From assembly GCA_964355105.1 (NCBI GenBank), contig CAYHCO010000003.1, positions 5,577-69,576 of the forward strand: a stretch of DNA of 64,000 bases, given 5' to 3'. Position numbers and translations under genes: made by a program. The DNA is from an uncultured Porphyromonadaceae bacterium (lineage in GTDB: Bacteria > Bacteroidota > Bacteroidia > Bacteroidales > UBA12481). This document shows positions 12,561 to 64,000 of the stretch, one piece after another (position 1 is the stretch's first letter; every line of letters starts with the position of its first letter). Under the pieces are notes generated by a model that saw only the letters and a program-made list of their open reading frames with translations, did no database searches and was not told where the DNA came from.

Positions 12561-13595
12561 CGCGTCGCCGTAGGTACCGAAACGGTACTTCTCTTTGATG
12601 GCGATCTGGTAAGCGTTCATCAGAGGATCGAATCCGGCAAAAGCCGCAACCATCATGAGCAGGGTCGTCAGAGGCAGGTGGAAATTCGATATCATACTGT
12701 CGGCAACCGAAAACTCGTAAGGAGGGAACAGGAATTTATTGGTCCAGCCGTTATAGGGCTTCAGGAATCCGTCGGTTGAAACCGAGCTTTCCAGGGTACG
12801 CATCGTGGTGGTGCCAACGGCACAGACATGATGGCGATTTTCTTTGGCGCCATTTACGATTTTGGATGCCTCCTCAGTAATGATGATCTGTTCGGAGTCC
12901 ATTTTGTGCTTGGTCAGGTCTTCTACGTCGACCGACCTGAAGTTGCCTAATCCCACATGAAGCGTGACGAAGGCAAAATCTATACCCTTAATTTCCAGAC
13001 GCTTCATTAATTCGCGACTGAAATGCATGCCGGCAGTTGGTGCGGCAACGGCTCCTTCATGTTTGGCGAAGATGGTCTGATAGCGTTCGCGGTCCTCGGG
13101 AACCACATCGCGCTTAATGAACTTAGGCAGTGGCGTTTCGCCCAGTTCAAACAGAGTTTTCTTGAATTCTTCATAAGGCCCGTCGAACAGAAAACGAAGT
13201 GTGCGTCCGCGGGATGTTGTATTGTCGATGACTTCGGCCACGAGCATGTCCTCCTCGCCGAAGTAAAGCTTGTTACCGATACGGATCTTGCGGGCCGGAT
13301 CAACCAGAACATCCCACAGCCTCTGTTCCCGGTTGAGTTCCCGAAGAAGGAATACCTCGATCTCAGCTCCGGTTTTTTCTTTATTTCCACGCAGCCTGGC
13401 AGGAAAAACGCGCGTATCGTTGAAAACCATTACATCCTTATTGTCGAAGTAGCCCAAAACATCCTTGAACACTTTGTGCTCTACTTCGCCGGTTTTGCGG
13501 TTCAGAACCAGCAACCGCGATTCATCGCGATTTTCAGATGGGTGTAAGGCAATAAGTTTGTCGGGCAGGGTATACCGGAACTTGGATAATTTCAT
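12546..13595 (-). CDS. queA: S-adenosylmethionine:tRNA ribosyltransferase-isomerase
   Basis: [31 protein letters not shown]... and a full-length QueA-like sequence (349 aa). Confidence 0.9.
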
Positions 13596-13697
13596 TCGTT
13601 AATAATTTATTGTTTCAAATAAAGTTGGCTTGTACTCATGGAGCCCTCAACTGAATTTCATTGCAATTCGCCAGCTTAGCTTATGAGGGGTTCATAA
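13596..13697 (-). repeat. copy A of a ~100-nt hairpin element abutting a start codon (queA)
   Basis: The reverse complement aligns with 63857..63957. Shared blocks are ttatgaacccctca, atgaaa, ttgagggctccatgagtac, agcca, ttgaaacaataaa and acgaATG. Confidence 0.8.
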
Positions 13698-16619: not shown

Positions 16620-18122
16620 GTGGGCATCATTGAAAAACAGAGCATTAAGGGATCCATCTATTCTTATATCGGCGTTGCCATAGGATTCATTACTGCCGGC
16701 TACCTGATGCCGAATTATTTCAGCAAAGAGCAAAACGGGGTCATTGAACTTCTCACCTCCTATTCATTGGTTTTTGCCACCCTCGCAACCCTTGGCCTTA
16801 ACAATGTAACCGTCAGGCTCTTCCCGTGGTTTCGCAACAAAGACAATCATCACAACGGATTTTTCGGCATACTTTTCTGGGTCAACATGGCCGGATTCCT
16901 GCTGGCACTTATCCTTTACCTGATCCTCAGGCCCTGGATCCTGGGCGATACACCCGCCGGTACCGGTCTGTTCGCCAAATATGTAGATTACATTATTCCT
17001 CTCACTGCCTTTACCACCATCTACCTGGTCATTGATATCTATTATTCGGTTTTGATGAATGCCGTTCGCGGGATTTTTCTCAAGGAATTTGTTCAGCGCG
17101 TGATCCTGCTGGTGGTTATCCTGGGCTTCATTGCCGGCATTTTCCAGTTTAACGGAGTCATCCTGCTGTTTACCGTTGCCCTCTCAACTCCGGGAATCAT
17201 CATTGCAATTCTTCTGATGAAAGACGGTGAATTCAGGATTAAACCCCAGCCGGAATTTCTCACTCCGGAACTTAAAAAATCGGTGACCAGTGTCGCTTTT
17301 TACGGGATCACCATCGCTTTCAGCAATATCCTCATCCTCTATCTTGATCGCATCCTGATCAATGACATGCTCGGTCTGGGCGAGACCGGCACCTATGGCC
17401 GTCTAGCCTTTTATGGCACCTTGGTTTCCATTCCGATACGATCCGTTTCGAAAATTTCCGCGGTGATGGTCGGACAAAACTGGAAAGACGGTGACCATGA
17501 CGCCATTAACAAGCTTTATCGCGATACCAGCCTGCATCAGCTGATTTTCGGCCTCCTGATCTTCATCGGAATATGGGGAAATGTGAAAAATATTTTCCAC
17601 ATGATCCCCGATAGCTACTCCAACGGCCGTTACGTGATTTTTTGGATGGGAATATCTAACCTGTTCATCATGGCCTCGGGTATCAGCGGTTCCATCATGA
17701 CCACCAGCAGTCACTATCGACGCCTGGCGATGTTTGTCGTGTTTTTCGGGATACTTGTATTGGCAACAAACCTGCTCTTCATTCCGATGTTCGGCATTGC
17801 CGGCGCAGCGCTCGCTTCGGCTGTTTCGGCGCTGTTTTATGCAGGAATGAGATTTGTCTTCCTCTGGAGGCGTTATGGCATGCAGCCCTACACCTGGCAG
17901 CATGCGGGTGCGGTGGTGGTTGCCGCGCTCTCCTACCTGCCGGCCATCCTGATTCCCGACCTGTATCAGGCGGATCACCATTATCTGAGTTTAATCCTGG
18001 ATGTTGCGGTCAGAAGTGCCGCCATTTCCATTGTTTTTATAGGAGCCACCCTGATATTTAACCTATCTCCCGATCTGAACAGGCGTTGGAATGAGATGCT
18101 GGGATGGCTGAGGCTGAAATAA
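16620..18122 (+). CDS. polysaccharide (O-unit) flippase, Wzx/MOP family
   Basis: 500 aa, about 12-14 TM. N-terminus KGSIYSYIGVAIGFITAGYLMPNYFSKEQNGVIELL is typical of oligosaccharide flippases. It leads the sugar biosynthesis locus. GTG start. Confidence 0.7.
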   Translation: MGIIEKQSIKGSIYSYIGVAIGFITAGYLMPNYFSKEQNGVIELLTSYSLVFATLATLGLNNVTVRLFPWFRNKDNHHNGFFGILFWVNMAGFLLALILYLILRPWILGDTPAGTGLFAKYVDYIIPLTAFTTIYLVIDIYYSVLMNAVRGIFLKEFVQRVILLVVILGFIAGIFQFNGVILLFTVALSTPGIIIAILLMKDGEFRIKPQPEFLTPELKKSVTSVAFYGITIAFSNILILYLDRILINDMLGLGETGTYGRLAFYGTLVSIPIRSVSKISAVMVGQNWKDGDHDAINKLYRDTSLHQLIFGLLIFIGIWGNVKNIFHMIPDSYSNGRYVIFWMGISNLFIMASGISGSIMTTSSHYRRLAMFVVFFGILVLATNLLFIPMFGIAGAALASAVSALFYAGMRFVFLWRRYGMQPYTWQHAGAVVVAALSYLPAILIPDLYQADHHYLSLILDVAVRSAAISIVFIGATLIFNLSPDLNRRWNEMLGWLRLK

Positions 18123-18148
18123 TTTATCTTTGTAAAAACCGGATCATC

Positions 18149-18862
18149 GTGGCAGAAAAACTTTTACTTATCGGAGGCGGCGGACACTGCAAATCGTGTA
18201 TCGACGTGATACAGGCAGAAGGAAGGTTCGAGATTGCCGGGATCGTGGAGAATGCGGGGTATCAGGTTCCCGCCTTCGCGGGAATGACAGAGAAGGGTGA
18301 AGGTTCCCGCCTTCGCGGGAATGACAGAGAAGGGATTGGTGAGCTGGGAAGTGTAATGGGATACCCGGTCATCGGAACCGATAGTGAATTGCCTGAGCTC
18401 ATCAGGGTGTATAAAAATGCGCTGATCACCGTTGGCCAGATTCAGCATCCCGATATCCGGATAAAACTGTTTAACCTGATCAGGAGCATGGGCGGCCAGT
18501 TTCCGGTCATTATCTCTCCAAACGCCTATGTATCAAGGAACGCACTCGTCGGTGAAGGCACGATCGTGATGCACCATGCGGTGGTAAATACCGAGGCCGT
18601 TATCGGGGTAAACTGCATACTCAATACGGGTGCACTTGTTGAGCACGAGGCACACGTTGGTGACCACAGCCATATTTCCACCTATGCCATACTGAACGGG
18701 CAATGCAAGGTGGGAAGCCGCACCTTTATCGGCAGCCGCACGGTGTTGTCGAACAATACCGATGTGGCAGACGATACCCTGATATCAGCCGGCTCTGTCG
18801 TTCTGAGGTCGCTTGAACAACCCGGGACCTATATTGGCAATCCGTTAAGGAAAATCCGATGA
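18149..18862 (+). CDS. neuD: NeuD/PglD-family sugar N/O-acetyltransferase (hexapeptide repeat) carrying an in-frame repeat insertion
   Basis: KLLLIGGGGHCKSCIDVIQ..FEIAGIVE N-terminal fold. Left-handed beta-helix hexapeptides (GEGTIVMHHAVVNTEAVIGVNCILNTGALVEHEAHVGDHSHIS). GTG at 18149 is preferred over ATG 18104, which overlaps the flippase. Confidence 0.7.
   Translation: MAEKLLLIGGGGHCKSCIDVIQAEGRFEIAGIVENAGYQVPAFAGMTEKGEGSRLRGNDREGIGELGSVMGYPVIGTDSELPELIRVYKNALITVGQIQHPDIRIKLFNLIRSMGGQFPVIISPNAYVSRNALVGEGTIVMHHAVVNTEAVIGVNCILNTGALVEHEAHVGDHSHISTYAILNGQCKVGSRTFIGSRTVLSNNTDVADDTLISAGSVVLRSLEQPGTYIGNPLRKIR
18265..18334 (+). repeat. two tandem 33-bp palindrome-containing units (37-bp period) inside the neuD-like CDS
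   Basis: ggttcccgccttcgcgggaatgacagagaaggg occurs at 18265..18297 and again at 18302..18334. Each holds the hairpin ttcccgc-cttc-gcgggaa. Confidence 0.9.
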
Positions 18863-19860
18863 ACAACCATGTAACCATCATTGCGGAAGCCGGCGTCAAC
18901 CATAACGGAGATATCAGCACCGCTCTTAAAATGATCGAGGTAGCGGCGGTATCAGGTGCCGACTTCATCAAATTCCAGACCTTCAAAACAGAAAAGCTCG
19001 TTACGGCATCTGCACCCAAAGCCGCCTATCAGGAGATACAAACAGGGGCTGAGGGCAGTCAGTTCGGGATGCTGAAAAAACTCGAGCTCGACGAAAAAGC
19101 GCATATTGTCCTGATGGCCCATGCGCGTCAGAAGGGCATCAGGATGATCTCCACCCCTTTTGATGATGAAAGTGCCGATATGCTTAACCGGCTGAACGTG
19201 GAATTGTTCAAGGTGGGATCAGGCGACCTTACCAACATCTTGTTATTGAGGCAACTGGCCAAATTCGGTCGGCCGGTGATCTTGTCAACCGGTATGGCCG
19301 AGATGTCGGAGATCGGTCAGGCAATAGGTATCCTGGAAAAGGGCGGCCTGCCACGGTCGAAGATCACCCTCTTGCACGCCAATACTGATTATCCCACGCC
19401 CTATACCGATGTTAATCTGCGGGCCATGCTCACCATGGCGCTCGAATTCGGCATTAAAGTGGGTTATTCCGACCATACCGATGGGATTGAAGTCCCGGTG
19501 GCAGCCGTGGCACTCGGTGCTGCGGTGATTGAAAAGCATTTTACCCTCGACCGGAGCATGCCCGGCCCTGACCACAAAGCCAGTCTGGAACCGCAGGAGC
19601 TGCGTGCCATGGTGCAATCCATCAGGAATATCGAGCTTGCACTCGGCTCCTCCCGGAAAGAACCCAGTGAGGGAGAACGGAAAAACATGCCGGCTGCACG
19701 TAAGAGCATTGTAGCTGCCTGCCCGATACAAAAAGGTGAAGCTTTTACCGAGAAAAACCTGACCGTCAAGAGGCCGGGCATCGGGATCAACCCTTTGCGG
19801 TGGGACGATATTATCGGTACATTTGCCACCCGGGATTACCGGACTGACGAACTCATCTGA
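18859..19860 (+). CDS. neuB: nonulosonic acid synthase (N-acetylneuraminate/legionaminate synthase family)
   Basis: VTIIAEAGVNHNGDISTALKMIEVAAVSGADFIKFQTF plus a C-terminal SAF-like domain (KGEAFTEKNLTVKRPG). Confidence 0.85.
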   Translation: MNNHVTIIAEAGVNHNGDISTALKMIEVAAVSGADFIKFQTFKTEKLVTASAPKAAYQEIQTGAEGSQFGMLKKLELDEKAHIVLMAHARQKGIRMISTPFDDESADMLNRLNVELFKVGSGDLTNILLLRQLAKFGRPVILSTGMAEMSEIGQAIGILEKGGLPRSKITLLHANTDYPTPYTDVNLRAMLTMALEFGIKVGYSDHTDGIEVPVAAVALGAAVIEKHFTLDRSMPGPDHKASLEPQELRAMVQSIRNIELALGSSRKEPSEGERKNMPAARKSIVAACPIQKGEAFTEKNLTVKRPGIGINPLRWDDIIGTFATRDYRTDELI

Positions 19861-21014
19861 TGCGAAAAATCTGCGTTATAACTACAAACCGGGCTGAATA
19901 CGGCCTTCTGTACTGGCTGATGAAAGGCATACAGTCGGAGCCGGAATTCCAGCTCCAGGTGGTGGTCACCGGCGCCCATTTATCGCCCGAATTCGGCTCA
20001 ACGATCGACAGGATACGCGAAGAGGGATTTAAGGTGGACCGGAGTTTCGACCTGGAACTTTTTGGCGACAAGGTCCTCGACATCACGCATTCGCTGGCTC
20101 TGGCCATTGAAGGTTTCGGTGCCTCTTTTCAGACCCTGAAACCCGACCTGGTGGTCATCCTCGGCGACCGATTTGAGATCCTGGGAGCAGCCACCGCCGC
20201 GCTAATCGCCAATATTCCGGTTGCCCACCTTCATGGCGGGGAATTGAGCGAGGGAGCGATCGATGATGCCATCAGGCATGCCGTAACCAAACTTTCGCAT
20301 CTGCATTTTGCAGCAGCCGAATCTTACCGCAACCGCATCATCCAGCTGGGTGAGCAGCCCGACCGGGTATTCATGGTCGGCGGACTGGGCATCGACAATA
20401 TCAACAAGGTTAAACTACTGGAGCCGGCCGAACTGGAAAAAGCCATCGGATTTAAGCTGAACAAGCGTAACCTGCTGATCACTTACCATCCGGAAACGCT
20501 CGATCCCGGACAGGCAGGCCATCATATCGGCGAATTGCTTTCGGCACTCGACAAGCTGCCCGATACCAGCCTGATCTTTACCATGCCCAATGCCGATACC
20601 GGTCACCGGATTATCATACAGAAATTACAATCTTTCGTGATGACCCGCGAAGACCGGGCTATTCTGATTCCTTCGATGGGACAGCTCAACTACTTGTCGG
20701 CCATGAAGTTGGTTGATGCAGTAGTCGGCAATTCATCCAGTGGAATCATTGAAGCGCCCAGCTTCCGCATCGGAACCATCAATATCGGCAATCGCCAGGA
20801 CGGTCGGATACGCGCCGCATCCGTGATTGATTGCGACACCTCCGAAGAGGCTATCACCCAGGCTTTCAACGAGCTGTATTCACCCGAATTCCGGGAAAAA
20901 CTAAAGTCGGTGGAAAACCCGTACGGCAATGGCGGCGCTGCCGACAAGATTATTGAAGTCCTGAAAAAAGAGGACTTCAGCAAACTCATTATCAAGCGAT
21001 TCTACGATAAGTAG
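19860..21014 (+). CDS. neuC: UDP-N-acetylglucosamine 2-epimerase (hydrolysing), NeuC/LegG family
   Basis: MRKICVITTNRAEYGLLYWLMKGI...VVTGAHLSPEFG...VILGDRFE...HLHGGE. Confidence 0.85.
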   Translation: MRKICVITTNRAEYGLLYWLMKGIQSEPEFQLQVVVTGAHLSPEFGSTIDRIREEGFKVDRSFDLELFGDKVLDITHSLALAIEGFGASFQTLKPDLVVILGDRFEILGAATAALIANIPVAHLHGGELSEGAIDDAIRHAVTKLSHLHFAAAESYRNRIIQLGEQPDRVFMVGGLGIDNINKVKLLEPAELEKAIGFKLNKRNLLITYHPETLDPGQAGHHIGELLSALDKLPDTSLIFTMPNADTGHRIIIQKLQSFVMTREDRAILIPSMGQLNYLSAMKLVDAVVGNSSSGIIEAPSFRIGTINIGNRQDGRIRAASVIDCDTSEEAITQAFNELYSPEFREKLKSVENPYGNGGAADKIIEVLKKEDFSKLIIKRFYDK

Positions 21015-22066
21015 TGTATCAGATATCTGACATAAAGATCACTGAGTCGGTTTCCATCCGGGAAGCCATGCGGATCATCGATACCGGTGCGATGAAAATT
21101 GCCATCGTGGTTGATGAGGAAGGAAAGCTGATCGGAACGCTGACCGACGGGGATATCAGGCGCGGTTTGCTGAGGGGAATGGAAATGAGTGATCCCATCC
21201 GGGATATCTTTAACAGTCACCCGCTTTCCGTTAAAATATCGGACCCGAAAGAAAAAATCATCGAACTGGCAGTCAGCCGCAAAGTCTTTCAGGTTCCGGT
21301 GGTCGACGAAGATGGCAGGGTGATCCGGATGGCGGAGATCGACCAGCTCATCAAACAGGAGAAACATCCCAACACCGTGGTGCTCATGGCGGGCGGACTG
21401 GGATCGAGATTAAAACCGCTGACCGATAAAACGCCGAAACCGATGTTGCCGGTGGGCGGCAAGCCTATCCTGGAAACCGTTATCAGCCGTTTCAAGAAAC
21501 ACGGGTACACCAAGTTTGTGATCGCCCTCAATTATAAAGGCAATATTATCCGCAGCTATTTTGGCAACGGGCTCACCCTCGGGGTCGATATCACTTATCT
21601 GGAGGAAAACCAGCGCATGGGTACGGCTGGGGCTTTGGGATTGCTCGACAGGTCGCCGGATGAATCGTTTTTTGTGATGAATGCAGATATTCTTACGTTG
21701 GTCGATTTTGAGAGCCTGATGGATTTTCATAACCGTAATGCCGCCGATGCCACCATGTGCATCCGTGAATACGGGATGGAAGTGCCTTATGGAGTGGTGA
21801 GGCTGAATAAGGAAAATATCGTCTCCATCGAGGAAAAACCCGTCCAGCAATTCTATGTCAATGCCGGTATCTACGTCCTCACACCCCAAACCCTAAACCT
21901 AATACCTGCCGGCCAACCGATGGATATGACCGGTCTGTTTGAGAAAGCCGTTGAACGCGGCATGACTACCCTCTCCTTTCCGATCAGGGAATTCTGGATG
22001 GATATCGGAAAGCCCGAAGATTACGAACGCGCCAATTTTGATTATAACAGGCTGTTTCATGAATGA
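21014..22066 (+). CDS. CBS-domain-containing sugar-phosphate nucleotidyltransferase (PtmE-like)
   Basis: An N-terminal CBS pair, then VVLMAGGLGSRLKPLTDKTPKPMLPVGGKPILE (NTP-transferase G-loop). GTG start overlaps the neuC stop. Confidence 0.75.
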   Translation: MYQISDIKITESVSIREAMRIIDTGAMKIAIVVDEEGKLIGTLTDGDIRRGLLRGMEMSDPIRDIFNSHPLSVKISDPKEKIIELAVSRKVFQVPVVDEDGRVIRMAEIDQLIKQEKHPNTVVLMAGGLGSRLKPLTDKTPKPMLPVGGKPILETVISRFKKHGYTKFVIALNYKGNIIRSYFGNGLTLGVDITYLEENQRMGTAGALGLLDRSPDESFFVMNADILTLVDFESLMDFHNRNAADATMCIREYGMEVPYGVVRLNKENIVSIEEKPVQQFYVNAGIYVLTPQTLNLIPAGQPMDMTGLFEKAVERGMTTLSFPIREFWMDIGKPEDYERANFDYNRLFHE

Positions 22067-22775
22067 CAAGAGTCCGTATATCGCGATAATACCCGCCCGG
22101 GGCGGCAGCAAGCGTCTACCGGGGAAGAATACCATGATGATTGCCGGCAAGCCACTGATCGGCTGGACCATTGAAGCCGCCATTGAATCCGGCGTGTTCG
22201 GCAGGGTGGTTGTCAGCACCGACAGTTGGGAGATCGCCGTTTTGGCCGCACAGTTTGGCGCCGAGGTGCCGTTCATGCGGCCCGACGAGCTCACTCAGGA
22301 TCATACCCCGACGGTGGACGTGATGATTCATGCGGTGAATGAACTCTCGAAGGATGCGAATACTCATTGGACGCATGTGGCCTGTCTGCAGCCGACCTCA
22401 CCCCTGCGTACCGCCCAAAATATCAGGGAAGCCGTTCAACAGCTCGAGGAAAAACGGGCAGATGCCGTCATATCAGTTTGCAGATCAGAACATTCTCCAC
22501 TGTGGAGCAATACGCTTCCGAAGAGCCTCTCGCTCGAAGGATTCATTCCCCAGAACATTCAGAAGACCCCATCCCAGCAACTGCCAGCCTACTACCGGCT
22601 GAATGGTGCCCTCTATTTCTGCAGTATTGCCAGGATGATTGAGGAGCGGACGCTTTTTCTGAACTCAGGTGCGTACGCGTACGTCATGAGCCGGAAAGAT
22701 TCTATCGATATTGATGATCAGGTGGATTTCGACCTGGCAGCCATTTATCTGGGTCAGCGCGTTTCCCAGGGATAA
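22059..22775 (+). CDS. neuA: acylneuraminate (nonulosonate) cytidylyltransferase
   Basis: IAIIPARGGSKRLPGKNTMMIAGKPLIGWTIEAA...CLQPTSPLR. The ATG overlaps the upstream stop (atgaatga). Confidence 0.85.
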   Translation: MNDKSPYIAIIPARGGSKRLPGKNTMMIAGKPLIGWTIEAAIESGVFGRVVVSTDSWEIAVLAAQFGAEVPFMRPDELTQDHTPTVDVMIHAVNELSKDANTHWTHVACLQPTSPLRTAQNIREAVQQLEEKRADAVISVCRSEHSPLWSNTLPKSLSLEGFIPQNIQKTPSQQLPAYYRLNGALYFCSIARMIEERTLFLNSGAYAYVMSRKDSIDIDDQVDFDLAAIYLGQRVSQG

Positions 22776-23656
22776 GATTCCAGTTTTTTACGGTCGAAAG
22801 CATCAATGAAAGTGACAGAACTGGCATTGATGATTTTTACGTTTTGCGACAGCGCAAATTCCTGGATGAGGTGATAGCTGCGGAAAGTACGGTACAGGTT
22901 GTAAAAATAGTCGTGCAGGTTGGCCCGCTGAAGCGTTTCGGGATGGTGAACCGCCACTTTCCAGGGCTTTTTGTCGTAAAAATGGTTCTCTGCCGAGACC
23001 AGTTTCCCATCTTCCCCGATCTCGAGTCCCTGGTGCCAGGAATGATCGGCCCCGACAATGATTATGCTGCCGAATCCGCATGCCAGTCCGGCCATCAGGG
23101 CCCCGATCAGCACGTTCTGCGGTGGGGGCATCCCCATCTGCCGGCGGTACAGCCAATGCCTGACGGGTTTTAGTCCATCAACAACCGTGCGGTTCATGAA
23201 AGCAAACCGGATGGGAATACCTGAAGCGACCAGATCGCGGTGAAAACGGCTGTTCCGGCCTTCAGCAGGGCAAAAAAGAGTTAGCGGCCAGGTGGTCTTT
23301 TCGATGAGCGCCTTCTTGATCAGCTCACGCACTTCGGCAACACGCGGAATCGTGGTATCTGCGAAGTACCCGATATCTAAAAGAATGTAATACTGCGGCT
23401 TAAGTCGCTCGTATTCATCGCTTAACACAAACTGGTTGACGCACAGGAGCTGCTTGTTTTCAAAAAAGCCGGGATGATTCTGAAGATCAGACCGCAGGGA
23501 CGGTCCGTTGGCTAAAATTACCAGCTCCTTGCCGGAGGCTTTGATCCTGGTGAGATCTGAACTGAAGCGGAAACGGAAAAGCACTCTTATCAGACTGATC
23601 AGGGCTTGATAAACCGATTCGAAGAAGCGTTGTATTTTGAGTAAAGCGTAAAACAT
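22754..23656 (-). CDS. putative nonulosonate (sialyl-like) transferase, GT42/DUF115-like
   Basis: LVILANGPSLRSDL....LLCVNQFVLSDEYERLKPQYYILLD resembles the Cst-II/GT42 N-terminus (GNGPSL..RCNQFYFEDKYYLGKK). Later GFGSIIIVGADHSW compares with GYKEIYLSGIDF. The start is taken at internal ATG 23656. The 3' end overlaps neuA by 22 nt. Confidence 0.45.
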   Translation of the reverse strand: MFYALLKIQRFFESVYQALISLIRVLFRFRFSSDLTRIKASGKELVILANGPSLRSDLQNHPGFFENKQLLCVNQFVLSDEYERLKPQYYILLDIGYFADTTIPRVAEVRELIKKALIEKTTWPLTLFCPAEGRNSRFHRDLVASGIPIRFAFMNRTVVDGLKPVRHWLYRRQMGMPPPQNVLIGALMAGLACGFGSIIIVGADHSWHQGLEIGEDGKLVSAENHFYDKKPWKVAVHHPETLQRANLHDYFYNLYRTFRSYHLIQEFALSQNVKIINASSVTFIDAFDRKKLESYPWETR

Positions 23657-23705
23657 GACAGGCTTTTGTGCGAAATTAACTAATTTCCCATCCAAACCGA
23701 ACAGG

Positions 23706-24623
23706 ATGGACGAGACGATGAAAGGCGGCACCCGGCTCCAGGGCCAACCGGCGGCACGAGTGGCCGGACTACCCGTGATTTCGGTAATCACCGTGGTGTA
23801 CAACGGTCTGAGCCTGATCGAAAAAACTATCAGGAGTATTGTTTCCCAGACTTATCCCAATATCGAATATATAGTGATTGACGGGGGTTCCACCGATGGG
23901 ACCGTTGAAATCCTGAAGTTATACGAAGATCGGATCAGCTATTGGATAAGCGAACCGGATCGCGGCATTTACGATGCCATGAACAAGGGATTGGCGGCTG
24001 CCACCAGCGATTATGTGTGGTTCATGAATGCCGGCGATCTGATCTATTCCGACGATACAACCGAAAAGATCTTCGGTTCGGTCCGGGGGGATGGGTCGGT
24101 CGGAGTTGATGGGTTGGTCGGGGTGGATGGTTCCGGGATTAGTTTAACGCAAGCCTCCCGTGCGGCCATTTATTATGGCGACACGATGATTGTGGATCCG
24201 GAATACCGCGAGGTGGGTCTGCGCCGGCTCCGCCCCCCGGAAAATCTCACGTGGAAAAGCTTCAGCCGGGGCATGCTGGTCTGCCACCAGGCGATCATTG
24301 TGAGCAGGACGATCGCCGGGGAGTTTGATCCGCGGTACCGGCACTCAGCGGATTTCGATTGGGTCGTACGCGCGCTTATGAAGGCAGAAGTTATGGTTCC
24401 CCCCAGACTTCAGTCTGGGGGGAAGGCCGAAGTTATCGTTAACACCCACCTCATTCTCTGCGCGTTCCTGGATGGCGGCCATTCCAAGCAGAACATCGGC
24501 ATCAGCCTGCGGGAGCGGTTCGATTCCATGGTACGGCATTACGGCTGGGTTCCCACCATGATCCGGCATGTGCCAATTGCCATCAAATTCGTCTGGTATT
24601 ATCTGAGAAACAAACGCTTCTAA
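23706..24623 (+). CDS. family 2 glycosyltransferase with two in-frame repeat insertions
   Basis: ISVITVVYNGLSLIEKTIRSIVSQTYPNIEYIVIDGGSTDGT...YWISEPDRGIYDAMNKG (GT2 DxD region). The start is uncertain (23655, 23706 or 23718). Confidence 0.75.
   Translation: MDETMKGGTRLQGQPAARVAGLPVISVITVVYNGLSLIEKTIRSIVSQTYPNIEYIVIDGGSTDGTVEILKLYEDRISYWISEPDRGIYDAMNKGLAAATSDYVWFMNAGDLIYSDDTTEKIFGSVRGDGSVGVDGLVGVDGSGISLTQASRAAIYYGDTMIVDPEYREVGLRRLRPPENLTWKSFSRGMLVCHQAIIVSRTIAGEFDPRYRHSADFDWVVRALMKAEVMVPPRLQSGGKAEVIVNTHLILCAFLDGGHSKQNIGISLRERFDSMVRHYGWVPTMIRHVPIAIKFVWYYLRNKRF
24090..24143 (+). repeat. 18-bp tandem repeat x3 inside the GT2 CDS
   Basis: gatgggtcggtcggagtt / gatgggttggtcggggtg / gatggttccgggattagt encode DGSVGV DGLVGV DGSGIS. 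Confidence 0.8.
24380..24436 (+). repeat. in-frame 42-bp insertion unit: 15-bp duplication flanking a 10-bp-stem hairpin, inside the GT2 CDS
   Basis: gaaggcagaagttat (24380..24394), then ggtt, then ccccccagac-ttca-gtctgggggg (24399..24422), then gaaggccgaagttat (24422..24436). Protein reads KAEV-MVPPRLQSGG-KAEV. Confidence 0.85.
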
Positions 24624-50035: not shown

Positions 50036-52273
50036 ATGAAAAGATCTACACTACTAATTCTGATGTTGTCTTTGATGGTCATGGCCTACGGACAAAAGGT
50101 CAATGTCAATCAGGGCAAACCCATTGCCTTCGGCTCCGAATTGATCACCCCGGTTCCTCAACCCGCGGTATCTTTACTAAAAGCCGGTGGAGAAGTGTTT
50201 TATAAAGAAACTTTCAACTGGAAAAATGCTGCAGATCCAAAAGGATGGACCGCTCCTGCAGGGTTCCAGATTGTAGAAGAAACCGACTTTGGCTGTCCAT
50301 GGATTTGGCGGGCTGGTACCGACAGTATCAAGGGTGAGTTGACTTTTGAACCGGGTCATGCTTACTCTCTTACTCCTGAAGACGGCTATTTCGTTTTACC
50401 CATGGACGAGTATAACTACGTGGATGGGATCAGTACGGCTAACGGCGTCATCTCCTGGTTCCAATTACCCGAGCTCGATTGCTCAACACATCCCGGAGTC
50501 ATTTTAACCTTCAGGCAATTTTTCCGTCTTTATCCAAACACAGATGTTAAGGTTGCCGTTTCAAACGACCTTGGGGTTCACTGGGCAAACTATAATGTGT
50601 CCTTTGATACAAGAACCAGTATTTTCTGCAAAAATCCTTACCCGGAATTAAATATCTCCGAGGTTGCCGCCGGTATGCCTAAAGTTTGGATCAAGTTTAT
50701 CTGGAACGGTATGAGCCGGTATTTCTGGTGTATTGATGATATCGAACTGTTCGAAAGTTATGACAACGATATTATGATGGAGGGTACCTGGTCGTATGCG
50801 ATCGACCTTGATAATGCCGATAACAATGAAGGATTTGTTTACATGACTCCTTTATCGCAGATCGGGGTTGACAACTTTGGAGGCTACACCTTCGCCGGTG
50901 CCATGCTCAACGCAGGGCTTGATGACCAGGAGGATGTTAACCTCAATGTGAACATCTTAAAAAATGGAGTATCGGTGTATGATGAGAATTCCGTATCCAG
51001 GGATATCTGGTCGATTCAGCGGGATACTTTCCCCGTTACCAAAATTTACAATCCTGACGGGTACGGCGCCTACGAAATGACTTTAACCGCCAAGGCTAAG
51101 CAGACGGATCAAAGACCATTAAATAACAAATACTCTGACACTTTTTACATTACCGACAGTATCTATTCCGTTTGCGACTGGGAATTCGAAGAACATGCCA
51201 GTACGGCCGCCTGGGGGAACAATGACGGTGACTATATGGGAATAGCCTACGATATTAAAAAACCCGTTGAGGCTAACTCAATTTCCTGTATGATCATGCA
51301 GAGGCCAAAGAATAAAAAAGCCAGTACCCAGGTTGGTTATAATTTTCAGTACTGGATTTTCAAATGGGATGCCGGCGAAGGTGCCTGGGTGGAAGCCATC
51401 ATGTCGGAATATACCGAAGTAACCCAGGAAATGATTGACACCTGGGTGACTCTGCCTCTTCAGAAAGATGGTGAATCCGAATTTTTGGAACCTGGATTTT
51501 ATGTTGCAGCTATCCAGACATTCCACGGCGGCGGTGCTGGAGCCAGTAACAGGGTCTTCCGGTTTACTATCGGCGCCGATCAGAGTCACAGATTCGCATA
51601 TGGAAAAACACTATTCAAGCGTTACAACGATGCCGACTGGTCACAGAACGATGAGCTTGGAATGGTTCGCCTCAACATCAACAGCACCGGCGCACCAAAA
51701 ATAGCAGACGTTCAGTTTAATGTCGATATGACCCTGCCGATATCCAATGGCACATTCAAACCGGCTTCCGATTTTGTTGATGTAGCAGGTACTTTTAACA
51801 ACTGGGGATCATCGGATCACATGACCGATGGGGATGGTGACGGCATTTATACCCTATCGATCCCGGCTCAGAATGTATTTTCAAAAATTGAGTACAAATA
51901 CCGCATCAACGGCAACTGGAATACCTCCGAATTCCCGTCTGGCGGACCAAACAGGGTTTACCGTGTTTCCTACTATAACGCAACCCATGATGTATACAAC
52001 AACGGCAAGAGCCTGACCGTCGACGCCAATTCTCTGACCTCGTCGATCAATGCTTATCCGAACCCGACCACCGGGCAATTCACTCTGGCTGTAACGAATA
52101 CCCAGGTTGTGGATCTGAATATCCAGGTAACTAATATCCAGGGACAGGTTGTATATCAGAACATTGCCAAGTCGGTCCTGAACCATCAGGAAAATATCGA
52201 CCTGAGTGCATTTGCTAAAGGGATGTACTTCCTGAAGGTGAACAACCAGGTTATGAAGCTTCTGGTTGAGTAG
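50036..52273 (+). CDS. T9SS-secreted protein, paralog 1: choice-of-anchor-J/MAM-like N-terminal domain, CBM20/48-like domain, T9SS C-terminal sorting domain
   Basis: Signal peptide. EVFYKETFNWKNAADPKGWTAPAGFQIVE..WIW. VDVAGTFNNWGSSDHMTDGDGDGIYTLSI..EYKYRINGNW (carbohydrate-binding-module-like). CTD INAYPNPTTGQFTLAV....GMYFLKVNNQ. Confidence 0.7.
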   Translation: MKRSTLLILMLSLMVMAYGQKVNVNQGKPIAFGSELITPVPQPAVSLLKAGGEVFYKETFNWKNAADPKGWTAPAGFQIVEETDFGCPWIWRAGTDSIKGELTFEPGHAYSLTPEDGYFVLPMDEYNYVDGISTANGVISWFQLPELDCSTHPGVILTFRQFFRLYPNTDVKVAVSNDLGVHWANYNVSFDTRTSIFCKNPYPELNISEVAAGMPKVWIKFIWNGMSRYFWCIDDIELFESYDNDIMMEGTWSYAIDLDNADNNEGFVYMTPLSQIGVDNFGGYTFAGAMLNAGLDDQEDVNLNVNILKNGVSVYDENSVSRDIWSIQRDTFPVTKIYNPDGYGAYEMTLTAKAKQTDQRPLNNKYSDTFYITDSIYSVCDWEFEEHASTAAWGNNDGDYMGIAYDIKKPVEANSISCMIMQRPKNKKASTQVGYNFQYWIFKWDAGEGAWVEAIMSEYTEVTQEMIDTWVTLPLQKDGESEFLEPGFYVAAIQTFHGGGAGASNRVFRFTIGADQSHRFAYGKTLFKRYNDADWSQNDELGMVRLNINSTGAPKIADVQFNVDMTLPISNGTFKPASDFVDVAGTFNNWGSSDHMTDGDGDGIYTLSIPAQNVFSKIEYKYRINGNWNTSEFPSGGPNRVYRVSYYNATHDVYNNGKSLTVDANSLTSSINAYPNPTTGQFTLAVTNTQVVDLNIQVTNIQGQVVYQNIAKSVLNHQENIDLSAFAKGMYFLKVNNQVMKLLVE

Positions 52274-52437: not shown

Positions 52438-54675
52438 ATGAAAAAATTTACACTATTAATTCTGATGTTGTCTTTGATGGTCATGACCTTCGGACAAAGG
52501 GTCAATGTCAATCAGGGCAAACCCATTGCCTTCGGCTCCGAATTGATCACCCCGGTTCCTCAACCGGCGGCATCTTTGCTTAAAGCCGGCGGTGACGTGT
52601 TTTACAAAGAGACTTTCAACTGGAAAAATGCTGCCGATCCGAAAGGGTGGACCGCCCCGGCAGGATTCCAGATCGTTGAAGAAACCGACTTTGGTTGTCC
52701 ATGGATTTGGAGGGCAGGTACCGACAGTATCAAGGGCATGCTGACTTTTGAACCCGGCCACGCCTACTCTCTTACACCTGAAGACGGCTATTTCGTTTTA
52801 CCCATGGACGAGTATAACTACGTCGACGGGGTCAATACTGCTAACGGAGTCATTTCCTGGTTCCAATTACCCGAGCTCGATTGCTCAACACATCCCGGAG
52901 TCATTTTAACCTTCAGGCAATTTTTCCGTCTTTATCCAAACACAGATGTTAAGGTTGCCGTTTCAAACGACCTTGGGGTTCACTGGGCAAACTATAATGT
53001 GTCCTTTGATACAAGAACCAGTATTTTCTGCAAAAATCCTTACCCGGAATTAAATATCTCCGAGGTTGCCGCCGGTATGCCTAAAGTTTGGATCAAGTTT
53101 ATCTGGAACGGTATGAGCCGGTATTTCTGGTGTATTGATGATATCGAACTGTTCGAAAGTTATGACAACGATATTATGATGGAGGGTACCTGGTCGTATG
53201 CGATCGACCTTGATAATGCCGATAACAATGAAGGATTTGTTTACATGACTCCTTTATCGCAGATCGGGGTTGACAACTTTGGAGGCTACACCTTCGCCGG
53301 TGCCATGCTCAACGCAGGGCTTGATGACCAGGAGGATGTTAACCTCAATGTGAACATCTTAAAAAATGGAGTATCGGTGTATGATGAGAATTCCGTATCC
53401 AGGGATATCTGGTCGATTCAGCGGGATACTTTCCCCGTTACCAAAATTTACAATCCTGACGGGTACGGCGCCTACGAAATGACTTTAACCGCCAAGGCTA
53501 AGCAGACGGATCAAAGACCATTAAATAACAAATACTCTGACACTTTTTACATTACCGACAGTATCTATTCCGTTTGCGACTGGGAATTCGAAGAACATGC
53601 CAGTACGGCCGCCTGGGGGAACAATGACGGTGACTATATGGGAATAGCCTACGATATTAAAAAACCCGTTGAGGCTAACTCAATTTCCTGTATGATCATG
53701 CAGAGGCCAAAGAATAAAAAAGCCAGTACCCAGGTTGGTTATAATTTTCAGTACTGGATTTTCAAATGGGATGCTACAGAAGGTGCCTGGGTTGAAGCCA
53801 TCATGTCGGCATATACTGAGGTAACCCAGGAAATGATTGACACCTGGGTAACAGTGCCACTGGAAAAAGATGGTGAATCCGAATTCCTGGAACCGGGGTA
53901 TTATGTTGCAGCTATCCAAACTTTCCATGGTGGCGGGCTTGGCGCCACTAACAGTGTCTTCCGGTTTACCATCGGGGCCGATCAGAGTCACAGATTCGCA
54001 TATGGGAAAACACTTTTCAAACGATACAACGATGCTGACTGGTCACAGAACGATGAACTTGGAATGATCCGTCTGAACATTAACAGTACGGGCGCGCCAA
54101 AAATAGCAGATGTTCAGTTTAATGTCGATATGACACTGCCGATATCCAATGGCACGTTCAAGCCGGCTTCCGATTTTGTTGATGTAGCCGGTACTTTTAA
54201 CAACTGGGGATCATCGGATCACATGACCGATGGGGATGGTGACGGCATTTATACCCTATCGATCCCGGCTCAGAATGTATTTTCAAAAATTGAGTACAAA
54301 TACCGCATCAACGGCAACTGGAATACCTCTGAATTCCCGTCAGGCGGGCCGAACAGGGTTTACCGTGTTTCCTATTATAACGCAACCCACGATGTGTACA
54401 ACAACGGCAAGAGCCTGGCCATCGATGCCAATTCGCTGACCTCCTCGATCAATGCTTACCCGAACCCGACCGACGGACAATTCACTCTGGCGGTAACGAA
54501 TACGCAAGTTGTGGATCTGAATATCCAGGTAACCAATATTCAGGGACAGGTTGTATATCAGAACATTGCCAAGTCGGTACTGAACTATCAGGAAAATATC
54601 GACCTGAGTGCGTTTGCCAAGGGAATGTATTTCCTGAAGGTGAACAACCAGGTTATAAAGCTATTGGTTGAGTAG
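52438..54675 (+). CDS. T9SS-secreted protein, paralog 2 (same architecture as 50036..52273)
   Basis: 745 aa, colinear with paralog 1 and identical in its central third. T9SS CTD INAYPNPTDGQFTLAV. Confidence 0.7.
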   Translation: MKKFTLLILMLSLMVMTFGQRVNVNQGKPIAFGSELITPVPQPAASLLKAGGDVFYKETFNWKNAADPKGWTAPAGFQIVEETDFGCPWIWRAGTDSIKGMLTFEPGHAYSLTPEDGYFVLPMDEYNYVDGVNTANGVISWFQLPELDCSTHPGVILTFRQFFRLYPNTDVKVAVSNDLGVHWANYNVSFDTRTSIFCKNPYPELNISEVAAGMPKVWIKFIWNGMSRYFWCIDDIELFESYDNDIMMEGTWSYAIDLDNADNNEGFVYMTPLSQIGVDNFGGYTFAGAMLNAGLDDQEDVNLNVNILKNGVSVYDENSVSRDIWSIQRDTFPVTKIYNPDGYGAYEMTLTAKAKQTDQRPLNNKYSDTFYITDSIYSVCDWEFEEHASTAAWGNNDGDYMGIAYDIKKPVEANSISCMIMQRPKNKKASTQVGYNFQYWIFKWDATEGAWVEAIMSAYTEVTQEMIDTWVTVPLEKDGESEFLEPGYYVAAIQTFHGGGLGATNSVFRFTIGADQSHRFAYGKTLFKRYNDADWSQNDELGMIRLNINSTGAPKIADVQFNVDMTLPISNGTFKPASDFVDVAGTFNNWGSSDHMTDGDGDGIYTLSIPAQNVFSKIEYKYRINGNWNTSEFPSGGPNRVYRVSYYNATHDVYNNGKSLAIDANSLTSSINAYPNPTDGQFTLAVTNTQVVDLNIQVTNIQGQVVYQNIAKSVLNYQENIDLSAFAKGMYFLKVNNQVIKLLVE

Positions 54676-56836: not shown

Positions 56837-56920
56837 GCCCAGATGGCGGAATCGGTAGACGCGCTGGTCTCAAACACCAGTAACAGCAATGTTGTGCCGG
56901 TTCGACCCCGGCTCTGGGTA
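56837..56920 (+). tRNA. tRNA-Leu (anticodon CAA)
   Basis: gcccaga-tg-gcgg-aatcggtag-a-cgc-g-ctggt-ctCAAac-accag, long variable arm taacagcaatgttgt, gccgg-ttcgacc-ccggc-tctgggt-a. Class II tRNA. The acceptor closes with one G-U pair. Confidence 0.9.
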
Positions 56921-57126: not shown

Positions 57127-57450
57127 ATGGATACGGAACAATTATTATCTGAAATCACTGAACTCCTCAAACCTTATGGTATTGAGAAGATAATCCTGTT
57201 TGGTTCATATGCTTCCGGTTTGCAAAAAAGCGGCAGTGACATAGATCTTCTGGTGATTAAAAAAATTCCTGCAAGCGAGACACGAAATTTCAGGATACAG
57301 CTTAAGAAGGCTCTTTGGAGGGAATTTTCCAATTTCAACTATTCGTTTGATGTTTTGGTGGATGACGAAAAAAGAATCCAGGAACGGATCGCTATCGGGG
57401 ATTTGTTCTATAAGGATATTTACACCAATGGTAAGGTAATATATGCCTAA
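57127..57450 (+). CDS. minimal nucleotidyltransferase (MNT) domain protein, antitoxin-like partner of HEPN
   Basis: KIILFGSYASGLQKSGSDIDLLVI equals the GS-x(9-10)-DxD polymerase-beta-type NTase motif. 107 aa. Confidence 0.8.
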   Translation: MDTEQLLSEITELLKPYGIEKIILFGSYASGLQKSGSDIDLLVIKKIPASETRNFRIQLKKALWREFSNFNYSFDVLVDDEKRIQERIAIGDLFYKDIYTNGKVIYA

Positions 57451-57829
57451 TCAGGTTTATGCGCTTGAATGGCTGGCCCTTGCCAAACGCAATCTTGAAA
57501 CTGCGGCCATTCTGTTGCGCGAAAACCACTACACTGACAGTATCGCTATTGAAATTCATATGGCACTTGAGAAATCATTCAAGTCGATATATGCATATTT
57601 CGGGATCACCATCCTCAGGACACATTCCTTAACCCTTCTATTTAGTTTTGTTTCAGAAAAAATGTCTTTACAGAACATTGATATCGAAGACATTATAATA
57701 ATCAGTGATTATTATGAAGCTGATCGTTACCCGGGCCCAAAATACAATCAACCTTCCAGGTCAGAAGTTGAGCATTACTATCTTTTTGCTAAAGAATTAG
57801 TTGCGGAGATTGAAGCCTTTCTATCCTGA
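57443..57829 (+). CDS. HEPN domain protein (toxin-like partner of MNT)
   Basis: 128 aa. LEWLALAKRNLETAAILL...ALEKSFKSIYAYFGITILRTHSLTLL resembles the (K/R)THDL region of PF05168 HEPN proteins. 8-nt overlap with the MNT gene. Confidence 0.75.
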   Translation: MPNQVYALEWLALAKRNLETAAILLRENHYTDSIAIEIHMALEKSFKSIYAYFGITILRTHSLTLLFSFVSEKMSLQNIDIEDIIIISDYYEADRYPGPKYNQPSRSEVEHYYLFAKELVAEIEAFLS

Positions 57830-63129: not shown

Positions 63130-63813
63130 ATGACAAGTTTCCTGAACTCATCCATCGGGAAAAAGTTCCTGATGAGTTTATCAGGGTTATTCCTGATATC
63201 CTTCCTGTTAGTTCACCTGATTGTCAACAGCATGATCCTGTTTGACTCCACGGGTGTTCTTTTTAACAATGCGGCTCACTTCATGGCCACTAACCCGATA
63301 ATCAGGGTGGTGGAGCCGGTACTGGCTATCGGGTTTATCCTGCACATCATTTATGCCGGTATCCTGACCCTTAAAAACCAGTGGGCCCGACCGGTCGGCT
63401 ATGCGAAAGAGCAAGCCGCAAACAGCAGTACCTGGGCATCGCGCAACATGTTCGTTTTGGGATCGCTGGTATTGATTTTCCTGGTCATTCATGTGGCAGA
63501 TTTTTTCTGGAAGATAAGGTTTACCGGCAGCGACCTGTTGGAAGGCAGTGGCGTTGAGGGGGTAGAAAACACTTACAAGCTGGTGACCACCCTATTTATT
63601 GAGTGGTGGTGGATCGATGTGTTTTACGTTTTCGGGGCCATTATTCTGGGTCTTCACCTGACCCATGCATTCTGGGCCGCATTCCAAACGCTCGGTCTGA
63701 GTGACATACGCTGGCGCAAGCGCCTGAATGTGATTGGATGGGTTTATACCATCGTTGTTGCGGGAGGTTTCGCGATCATTCCGCTCTGGGTTAAAATTTC
63801 ATCCATGTTATAA
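63130..63813 (+). CDS. sdhC: succinate dehydrogenase/fumarate reductase cytochrome b subunit (b558 family)
   Basis: MTSFLNSSIGKKFLMSLSGLFLISFLLVHLIVNSMILFD... Five TM segments, typical of Bacteroidota FrdC/SdhC. Confidence 0.85.
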   Translation: MTSFLNSSIGKKFLMSLSGLFLISFLLVHLIVNSMILFDSTGVLFNNAAHFMATNPIIRVVEPVLAIGFILHIIYAGILTLKNQWARPVGYAKEQAANSSTWASRNMFVLGSLVLIFLVIHVADFFWKIRFTGSDLLEGSGVEGVENTYKLVTTLFIEWWWIDVFYVFGAIILGLHLTHAFWAAFQTLGLSDIRWRKRLNVIGWVYTIVVAGGFAIIPLWVKISSML

Positions 63814-63856
63814 ACCGTAAGTGAGAACCTTCGGGTCCTATCAACAAAAAATACCA

Positions 63857-63957
63857 TTATGAACCCCTCAAGTGTAAAGGCTCGCAAAATAACATGAAAC
63901 TAATTTGAGGGCTCCATGAGTACGAGCCAATTAACTTGAAACAATAAACTTTTGACG
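63857..63957 (+). repeat. copy B of the ~100-nt hairpin element abutting a start codon (sdhA)
   Basis: Aligns with the reverse complement of 13596..13697. It sits between the normally tightly linked sdhC and sdhA. Confidence 0.8.
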
Positions 63958-64000
63958 AATGAAACTCAACGCAAAAATACCAACGGGACCGCTTGCTGAA
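63958..64000 (+). CDS. sdhA: succinate dehydrogenase/fumarate reductase flavoprotein subunit, 5' fragment (runs off window)
   Basis: My translation MKLNAKIPTGPLAE matches the usual Bacteroidota FrdA/SdhA N-terminus (MKL.SKIP.GPLAEKW). It follows sdhC. Confidence 0.7.

Follow-up and report, generated by a model that had tools for sequence, protein, structure and literature searches.

Noncoding elements of about 100 bp at ATGAA gene starts in uncultured Bacteroidales are probably mobile and carry a replacement start codon

Why should two unrelated genes of one bacterium, sdhA and queA, be preceded by nearly the same 100 nucleotides, in the same orientation and in the same register with their start codons? 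Both sequences lie in the 64,000-nucleotide stretch of DNA analyzed here (hereafter the window), and the initial annotation had offered two answers. The first is a 5′-UTR regulatory or translation-initiation module, and the second is a small mobile element that either seeks out or generates the context of a start codon. The copy before sdhA (copy B), the copy before queA (copy A), and their parts are as follows.

63859..63963, plus strand: copy B, which extends from a 5′ ATGAA, once the start codon of sdhA, to the 3′ ATGAA with which sdhA now begins
63859..63863, plus strand: 5′ ATGAA of copy B, the old sdhA start codon and now codon 1 of a 12-codon mini-ORF (MNPSSVKARKIT)
63864..63870, plus strand: P1 5′ arm of copy B, CCCCTCA, invariant in 37/37 copies and shared by L063 and L069, two diverged relatives
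63871..63905, plus strand: inner region of copy B, with the P2 hairpin (decayed in this copy) and an A-rich linker
63906..63911, plus strand: P1 3′ arm of copy B, TGAGGG, which pairs with the P1 5′ arm
63912..63923, plus strand: conserved CTCCATGAGTAC of copy B, containing a CAU that can pair with either AUG
63924..63958, plus strand: 3′ part of copy B, a variable AT-rich hairpin region (P3) and a conserved tail, ...ACGA, directly before the sdhA ATG
63959..63961, plus strand: present sdhA start codon, the ATG at the 3′ end of copy B
13591..13695, minus strand: copy A, from its 5′ ATGAA to the 3′ ATGAA that starts queA
13593..13595, minus strand: present queA start codon, the ATG at the 3′ end of copy A
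13632..13650, minus strand: core of copy A, TTGAGGGCTCCATGAGTAC, comprising the P1 3′ arm and the CAU segment
13684..13690, minus strand: P1 5′ arm of copy A, CCCCTCA, as read in the sequence

The two copies, each of ~105 nt, are identical at 84 of 106 positions over the element (79%), with the inner region as the most divergent part, and their flanks align at ~50%, which is the background level for such an alignment. The relationship first noticed between the sequences upstream of sdhA and queA is real by these measures. Indeed, the window contains the 19-mer TTGAGGGCTCCATGAGTAC exactly two times, against none in 100 shuffles, and a covariance model run over the whole window with filters off finds only the two copies, scoring copy A at 119 bits and copy B at 104 bits, with the next best match at 13 bits. 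Each copy represents a net insertion of 100 bp and both begins and ends with ATGAA, such that a 5-nt direct repeat brackets the element. The similarity between the copies extends into the first five bases (ATGAA) of sdhA and queA. The earlier description of an element that ends exactly at the ATG is accurate in that its body abuts the start codon, but the similarity continues through the ATGAA of the gene. Likewise, the earlier coordinates placed both copies correctly but were off by 1 to 2 nt, and the sdhC-sdhA spacer, given as 144 nt, measures 145 nt, as the sdhC stop ends at 63813.

If the element were an inherited leader, it should be present at the same genes in close relatives. SdhC homologues were taken from the protein database and their contigs were fetched for comparison of the sdhC-sdhA region. 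The closest relative (L043-L045, independently assembled from three runs) shares 97% amino acid identity in SdhC and 684 of 729 nt (93.8%) over sdhC and the spacer. It shares the 45-nt spacer with the window, ...ctatcaacaaaaaataccatt, followed directly by ATGAAACTCAACGC, without the 100 nt. At this empty site the spacer runs into ATGAAACTCAAC, with the junction ...ataccattATGAAACTCAAC. The window reads ...ccatt[ATGAA]CCCCTCA...TTTTGACGA[ATGAA]ACTCAAC at the same place, which is the sequence of the relative plus exactly 100 nt. Because a close relative carries the same sdhC-sdhA spacer lacking only these 100 nt, the element before sdhA is an insertion and not an inherited regulatory leader. More distant relatives have sdhC-sdhA spacers of 11 to 12 nt or an unrelated GC-rich hairpin.

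The queA site gives a similar picture. It is empty in L049/L050 (QueA 97% identical), where it reads tttttttATGAAATT, and it is also empty in L051. In the 98% relatives L046-L048 it reads atatatttACGAATGAAATT, within which a “footprint”, tttACGAATGAAATT, matches the 3′ consensus of the element over 14 nt, with ACGA alone being diagnostic; a more distant relative has CAGA at the ACGA position upstream of queA. The L046-L048 sequence may be a 3′ remnant produced by a microhomology deletion, an ambiguous reading that turns on these four diagnostic bases. As a test of vertical inheritance, the element is absent at sdhA in a 97% relative and at queA in relatives of 95 to 98%. The queA gene of L051 (801-1889) has been annotated with 13 additional codons (362 aa), starting at a GTG that lies further upstream within the truB-queA spacer; this is probably a start-site miscall.

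The collected loci also hold a second, GC-rich, REP-like hairpin repeat, GGAGGACCCnnGGGTCCTCC, which L019 (1689-1750) has as a tandem pair behind the stop of a gene. In an 86% relative (L039/L040), the 80-nt sdhC-sdhA spacer is made up of related hairpins, and nucleotides 63817-63846 of the window's own sdhC-sdhA spacer (gtaagtgagaaccttcgggtcctatc) look like a decayed copy of this repeat.

The initial annotation had reasoned that a lack of further copies, or copies at random positions and orientations relative to genes, would favor a plain MITE. An 18-mer from the core was scanned as an exact match through one genome per species, covering 185,579 species. It returned 36 loci, comprising 31 true copies and 5 chance matches, and the true copies come from ~10 lake and groundwater MAGs of uncultured Bacteroidales/Porphyromonadaceae. 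Copy-bearing MAGs include JBAZTE01, CAINOB01, JBBQOG01, JBBAAF01, CAILAQ01, CAIXHD01 and QYQM01. An independent pattern (both P1 arms), scanned through JGI metagenomes, yielded more, for a deduplicated total of 37 distinct complete copies, 98 to 102 nt in length from ATGAA to ATGAA. Further copies are thus plentiful in MAGs and metagenomes, and neither of the two outcomes was found: the copies are mobile, but their register with a start codon is almost always fixed, because the target pentamer is itself a gene start.

The 1 to 6 copies seen per genome are an underestimate because repeats break assemblies, and several copies lie at contig ends. An nhmmer search over 508 kb of collected loci found no copies beyond those that already have the core, and scans of viral contigs, plasmids and phages found none. 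Identity reaches 98% between copies that precede different genes in separate MAGs, and a private subfamily was seen in one MAG. In L059, from another lineage with a 12-nt sdhC-sdhA spacer, a copy of a different subfamily is present at the sdhA start codon, and therefore the same start codon has been hit at least twice. Two diverged relatives, L063 (88 nt) and L069 (133 nt, between an L25/Ctc gene and pth, ending at the GTG start of pth), retain only ATGAA-CCCCTCA...TGAGGGCTCCA, and their inner helices (GGUAAU/AUUACC; CAGCU/AGCUG) are wholly different.

Partial 3′ ends were seen upstream of one copy in L019 (~2671-2692) and at a paralogue in L055 (~2944-2970). In these solo pieces, as in the queA sequence of L046-L048, ...TTTACGA, ...TTAGCGA or ...TCTACGA stands directly before ATGAA and the rest of the element is absent; they could be deletion remnants, nested insertions or duplicated gene starts. 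One contig binned as Methylococcaceae (L021, CAJAHC010000428.1) has the same copy and the same downstream gene as L014 of a Bacteroidetes bin, and is probably mis-binned.

Preinsertion sites were rebuilt by joining the 5′ flank of each copy to the sequence from the 3′ ATGAA onward. The rebuilt target consists of a conserved ATGAA followed by A in 33 of 37 cases, and the remaining flanks are merely A/T-rich. Every one of the 37 copies lies between ATGAA pentamers in a single orientation, including four with single-base variants in which one pentamer deviates (GTGAA or ATAAA) and the two pentamers are unmatched. A long or otherwise credible ORF opens at the 3′ ATG of the element (GTG in two cases) in 33 to 34 of the 37 copies. 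Among the others, the true start in L033 is 7 nt further downstream, and the ORFs in L013 and L024 are doubtful. The downstream products are diverse and include QueA, SdhA, an endonuclease IV (Nfo)-like protein, Dus, an RfbA-like protein and many proteins with signal peptides.

How much of this association follows from the target word itself can be gauged from the window, where ATGAA occurs at 19 gene starts, at 19 intergenic positions and 192 times inside genes, and ATGAAA occurs at 12 gene starts, at 7 intergenic positions and 53 times inside coding sequence; 36% of the window's genes begin with ATGAA. Because a 100-nt insertion inside a gene shifts the reading frame and would be lost, 50 to 63% of surviving copies are expected at start codons. 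The observed fraction is ~90%, with a binomial P of ~1e-4 to 1e-7 against a baseline taken from one 64-kb window and a sample in which some copies are orthologous. These values suggest that the start-codon bias comes mainly from the status of ATGAAA as the commonest gene start together with the loss of intragenic insertions, and that a modest extra preference for start codons may exist beyond target word and selection.

Several other features of the window were recorded. Two tandem paralogues of 745 aa (50036-52273 and 52438-54675, plus strand), 97% identical and with CBM48-like, DUF3244 and T9SS C-terminal sorting domains, look like a recent tandem duplication; both start with ATGAAA, and the element is at neither. 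A YafQ-family toxin is found beside a tRNA gene (2197-2472 and 2582-2655), and a nucleotidyltransferase/HEPN pair beside another tRNA (56837-56920 and 57127-57829). Small integrated islands may account for these toxin–antitoxin-type genes next to tRNAs. Situated between copies A and B, but unconnected with them, is a cluster for sialic-acid-type sugar nucleotides (16707-24623) that encodes NeuB, UDP-GlcNAc 2-epimerase, a CMP-sugar cytidylyltransferase, an acetyltransferase, a flippase and a GT2 glycosyltransferase.

All copies share a common layout, in which ATGAA-CCCCTCA is followed by P2 (YGAGC...GCUCR), an A-rich linker, TGAGGG-CTCCATGAGTAC, a variable AT-rich P3, and finally TTTACGA-ATGAA. 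The P1 stem is formed by CCCUCA paired with TGAGGG. With the element ends written as ATGAACCCCTCA... and ...ACGAATGAA, the parts that abut in the joined arrangement, TTTACGA-ATGAA-CCCCTCA, are the most conserved of the element. Inspection of the alignment finds no terminal inverted repeats, as the consensus ends, CCCCTCAYGAGC... and ...AATTATTTACGA, are not reverse complements. Predicted hairpins lie close to each end (P1/P2 at one, P3 at the other); they are dissimilar to each other, and P3 differs between subfamilies.

The pairing of arms that was proposed from copies A and B is borne out, in that CCCCTCA can pair with TGAGGG and AUG with CAU, and the inner part has diverged. In minimum-energy folds, the old AUG is usually paired with the CAU of CUCCAUGAG, which lengthens P1. 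An alternative predicted helix, P4, pairs CAUGAGUA with UACGAAUG around the new AUG and includes tandem G.A; the equivalent segments are CAUCUU/AAGAUG in L063 and CAC/GUG in L069, where the start is GUG. An extra hairpin, GGCUC/GAGCC around CAUGAGUAC, is present in copy B and was set aside, as inspection of the alignment shows that it is not conserved in other copies.

The copies were folded and searched for compensatory changes, as the initial annotation had suggested. The P1 arms pair, but P1 is invariant; in the main family, P2 has one compensated pair, which is not above shuffles; and RNAalifold recovers P1 only. A count in P2 meant to tell the active strand favors neither one, as G.U pairs on the top strand are no more frequent than A.C cells, and no less, with the closing pair left out. 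The predicted stability of the folds is ordinary (z from -0.3 to -2.6). For the CAU/start-codon pairing, L063 and L069 provide four pairs in which both partners have changed, a value that none of 500 shuffles attained, in a comparison of two diverged sequences from which the structure was itself derived. We treat this covariation as only a lead.

These observations allow the leader reading to be weighed. If the element were a host cis-regulatory leader RNA (riboswitch-like, a thermosensor or a translation-initiation module) that controls the genes downstream and whose spread is secondary, then it would be expected always to lie in the sense direction and in fixed register with the start codon, as it does. 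The predicted pairing of CAU with the start codon, with the changes just described, and the fact that L014 and L036, two species-level MAGs, have both kept the element at an orthologous gene are also consistent with such a role. Yet the same sites are empty in close relatives and the downstream genes have no common function. Orientation and register follow automatically from an ATGAA target, and stability and covariation are as given above. At gathering threshold over the whole window, only tRNAs reach the gathering score in Rfam 15, and with E up to 10 the best local matches for the two copies have E of at least 1.5 (12 to 16 bits). Moreover, an A at position -3 is reported to favor initiation in Bacteroidetes, and the conserved -3 position of the element is C, which we count against a leader role. 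We therefore regard it as quite unlikely that the element is a host leader RNA. As an account of its origin, the regulatory module of the initial annotation is not supported, given the empty sites in relatives, the unrelated downstream genes and the lack of an Rfam match; the evidence instead shows the alternative that was named there, a small mobile element linked to start-codon contexts.

What an insertion does to the gene can be read from the copies. The old ATG heads a mini-ORF of 4 to 15 codons (MNPS...), which is MNPS followed by a stop in about half of the copies, and the ORF of the gene opens at the regenerated ATG, behind ...AAUAAAUUAUUUACGA. The gene still begins with ATGAA because one end of the element is itself ATGAA, and the insertion is tolerated even inside the essential sdhC-sdhA operon because the start codon is regenerated. 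Neither a sigma-70-like site nor an intrinsic terminator was found inside the element, and just 2 of 37 copies have the Bacteroidetes -7 motif TAnnTTTG. A secondary effect on translation at the RNA level is possible, either by sequestration of a start codon by CAU or through the mini-ORF. We speculate that, within the mRNA, pairing of the conserved CAU with one or the other AUG may modulate the choice of start.

We consider it probable that these sequences constitute a family of ~100-bp noncoding, nonautonomous mobile elements of freshwater and groundwater Bacteroidales that target ATGAA, carry an ATGAA of their own and would be mobilized in the manner of IS200/IS605 elements. The element integrates in one orientation at ATGAA, usually ATGAAA, and ATGAAA (Met-Lys) is the commonest gene beginning in these genomes. 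The terminal ATGAA restores the gene start, preceded by the A/U-rich tail of the element, and the other ATGAA is left 100 nt upstream, where it opens the mini-ORF. Mobilization most likely occurs in trans, by analogy with known systems, with an IS200/IS605-type (HUH/Y1) transposase acting on single-stranded DNA. The flanking ATGAA would then serve as the transposon-adjacent target motif (TAM) and the terminal one as the cleavage motif encoded by the transposon (TEM), both reading TTCAT on the opposite strand, with the P1/P2 and P3 hairpins as candidate subterminal recognition structures.

We favor this single-strand model because the target pentamer equals the terminal pentamer, the predicted hairpins are subterminal and the empty site is scarless. 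IS200/IS605 elements insert 3′ of a specific pentanucleotide by way of single-stranded DNA, have subterminal hairpins and nearly identical TAM and TEM, and leave a scarless donor joint; their known TAMs include TTTAT and TTCAT, and gene-less, PATE-like forms are documented (PMC2806898; PMC10055086). TTCAT is the reverse complement of ATGAA. Against the model, a Pfam search of all 50 ORFs of the window revealed no transposase, whatever the kind, a tblastn search with two Y1 sequences as queries found no match in the 508 kb of collected loci, and neither the scan of species genomes nor that of metagenomes found a longer, autonomous element with the same ends.

The same 5-nt repeats might have been made by a double-strand (DDE-type) transposase, acting by cut-and-paste or copy-and-paste on a miniature element with extreme ATGAA specificity and a 5-bp target-site duplication. 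A small, noncoding, multicopy element, with a direct repeat around every copy and one repeat unit at the empty site, is what this mechanism would leave, and as the target and terminal pentamers are equal, the junctions and the scarless empty site would look identical. We give this explanation a low probability, as the ends (CCCCTCAYGAGC... versus ...AATTATTTACGA) lack terminal inverted repeats and the orientation is strict relative to an asymmetric 5-nt target. The four copies with unmatched pentamers also argue against a duplication, although they would fit later mutation equally well.

The third mechanism to be weighed is that of IS110/IS1111-type elements, whose DEDD recombinase is guided by RNA. 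Guide-RNA recognition in this family requires ~10 or more specific target bases, and the target here is conserved over ATGAA(A) only; a guide-RNA mechanism is unlikely with these 5 to 6 conserved bases. Both the recombinase and a long noncoding end are absent as well. The strong conservation of the abutted ends, TTTACGA-ATGAA-CCCCTCA, would suit a nonautonomous derivative of such an element, as would the targeting of translation-initiation signals (CATGNNNNNNTCTCCTT) by its family member IS900, as given in the IS900 passage of PMC8141618. On balance, we consider an IS110/IS1111 origin very improbable.

Returning to the single-strand reading, we entertain as a tentative extension that an IS200/IS605-like mini-transposon lineage has evolved to be translationally harmless, by both targeting and recreating the start codon, with a predicted fold that would hide either the orphaned AUG (by extension of P1) or the new AUG (by P4). 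If this were true, then the mini-transposon would be a natural 5′-UTR replacement device that swaps the native leader for a portable one, could retune the translation of any Met-Lys gene and could sit inside essential operons.

For annotation, the consequence is that a long “conserved leader” before unrelated genes is here a transposon footprint and not regulation, which is a caution for motif hunters. Translation initiation in Bacteroidetes proceeds without Shine–Dalgarno pairing. Each insertion swaps the native initiation region for a standard one and adds an upstream mini-ORF, and the family in this way amounts to a natural experiment that offers isogenic pairs, with and without the element, for the study of Bacteroidetes initiation. 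If a transposase were found, then a target logic of 5 to 6 nt and a cargo limit of 100 nt would make a very compact targeting system. The route to harmless insertion also differs from self-splicing (IStrons) and from intergenic safe sites, in that the start codon is hit and its replacement is carried along.

Among known systems, the element most resembles IS200/IS605 elements and PATEs, with which it shares single-orientation insertion next to a pentanucleotide, a near-identical motif at the far end, predicted subterminal hairpins, a scarless empty site, short noncoding derivatives, TTCAT as a known TAM, and ends that are not inverted repeats. It differs in that no cognate tnpA was found, in that the motif directly abuts the foot of a hairpin, and in that its hairpins are unlike each other, whereas the ends of IS200/IS605 elements usually bear similar hairpins. 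In addition, target, terminal motif and start codon are here one and the same and the interrupted gene is repaired, which is not described for that family in the literature searched.

Insertion in the region of a start codon and in fixed orientation is shared with IS900 of the IS110 family. IS900, however, is autonomous and 1.4 kb long; its recognition motif of 17 bp takes in the ribosome-binding site, and insertion falls between this site and the ATG. The present element is noncoding, measures 100 nt, has a target of 5 to 6 nt and brings the start codon with it. The insertion motif of IS900, CATGNNNNNNTCTCCTT, combines start codon and ribosome-binding site, with CATG targeted, according to the IS900 passage of PMC8141618, in which Doran 1997 is cited by title.

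Correia, ERIC, RUP, REP/REPIN and Rickettsia palindromic elements are likewise short, noncoding and multicopy with hairpin potential, vary in presence between strains and can change the expression of neighboring genes. However, those repeats have terminal inverted repeats or are simple palindromes, use short unspecific targets (e.g., TA) and lie at varied intergenic positions, or, for Rickettsia elements, in frame within coding sequence. We know of no repeat of these types that regenerates start codons. With classical MITEs the element has in common that it is short, noncoding, multicopy and polymorphic in presence, but not the terminal inverted repeats. Near-identical upstream sequences before nonhomologous genes have also been described as “putative mobile promoters” or promoter reuse in prokaryotes (PMC3575422). 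The present element differs from these in that it has no consistent Bacteroidetes promoter motif or sigma-70-like site and is also found inside an operon.

Small nonautonomous insertion elements are well known, and the literature searched holds no description of one that regenerates start codons; landing on a start codon with a replacement start codon and leader appears to be undescribed. A parallel in design is the IStron, a group I intron combined with an IS605-type transposon, which is likewise a mobile element built to make insertion into genes harmless. Rfam gave no ribozyme match for the present element. IStrons are kilobases long and splice themselves from the RNA, whereas here the start codon is duplicated and the gene is given a new leader.
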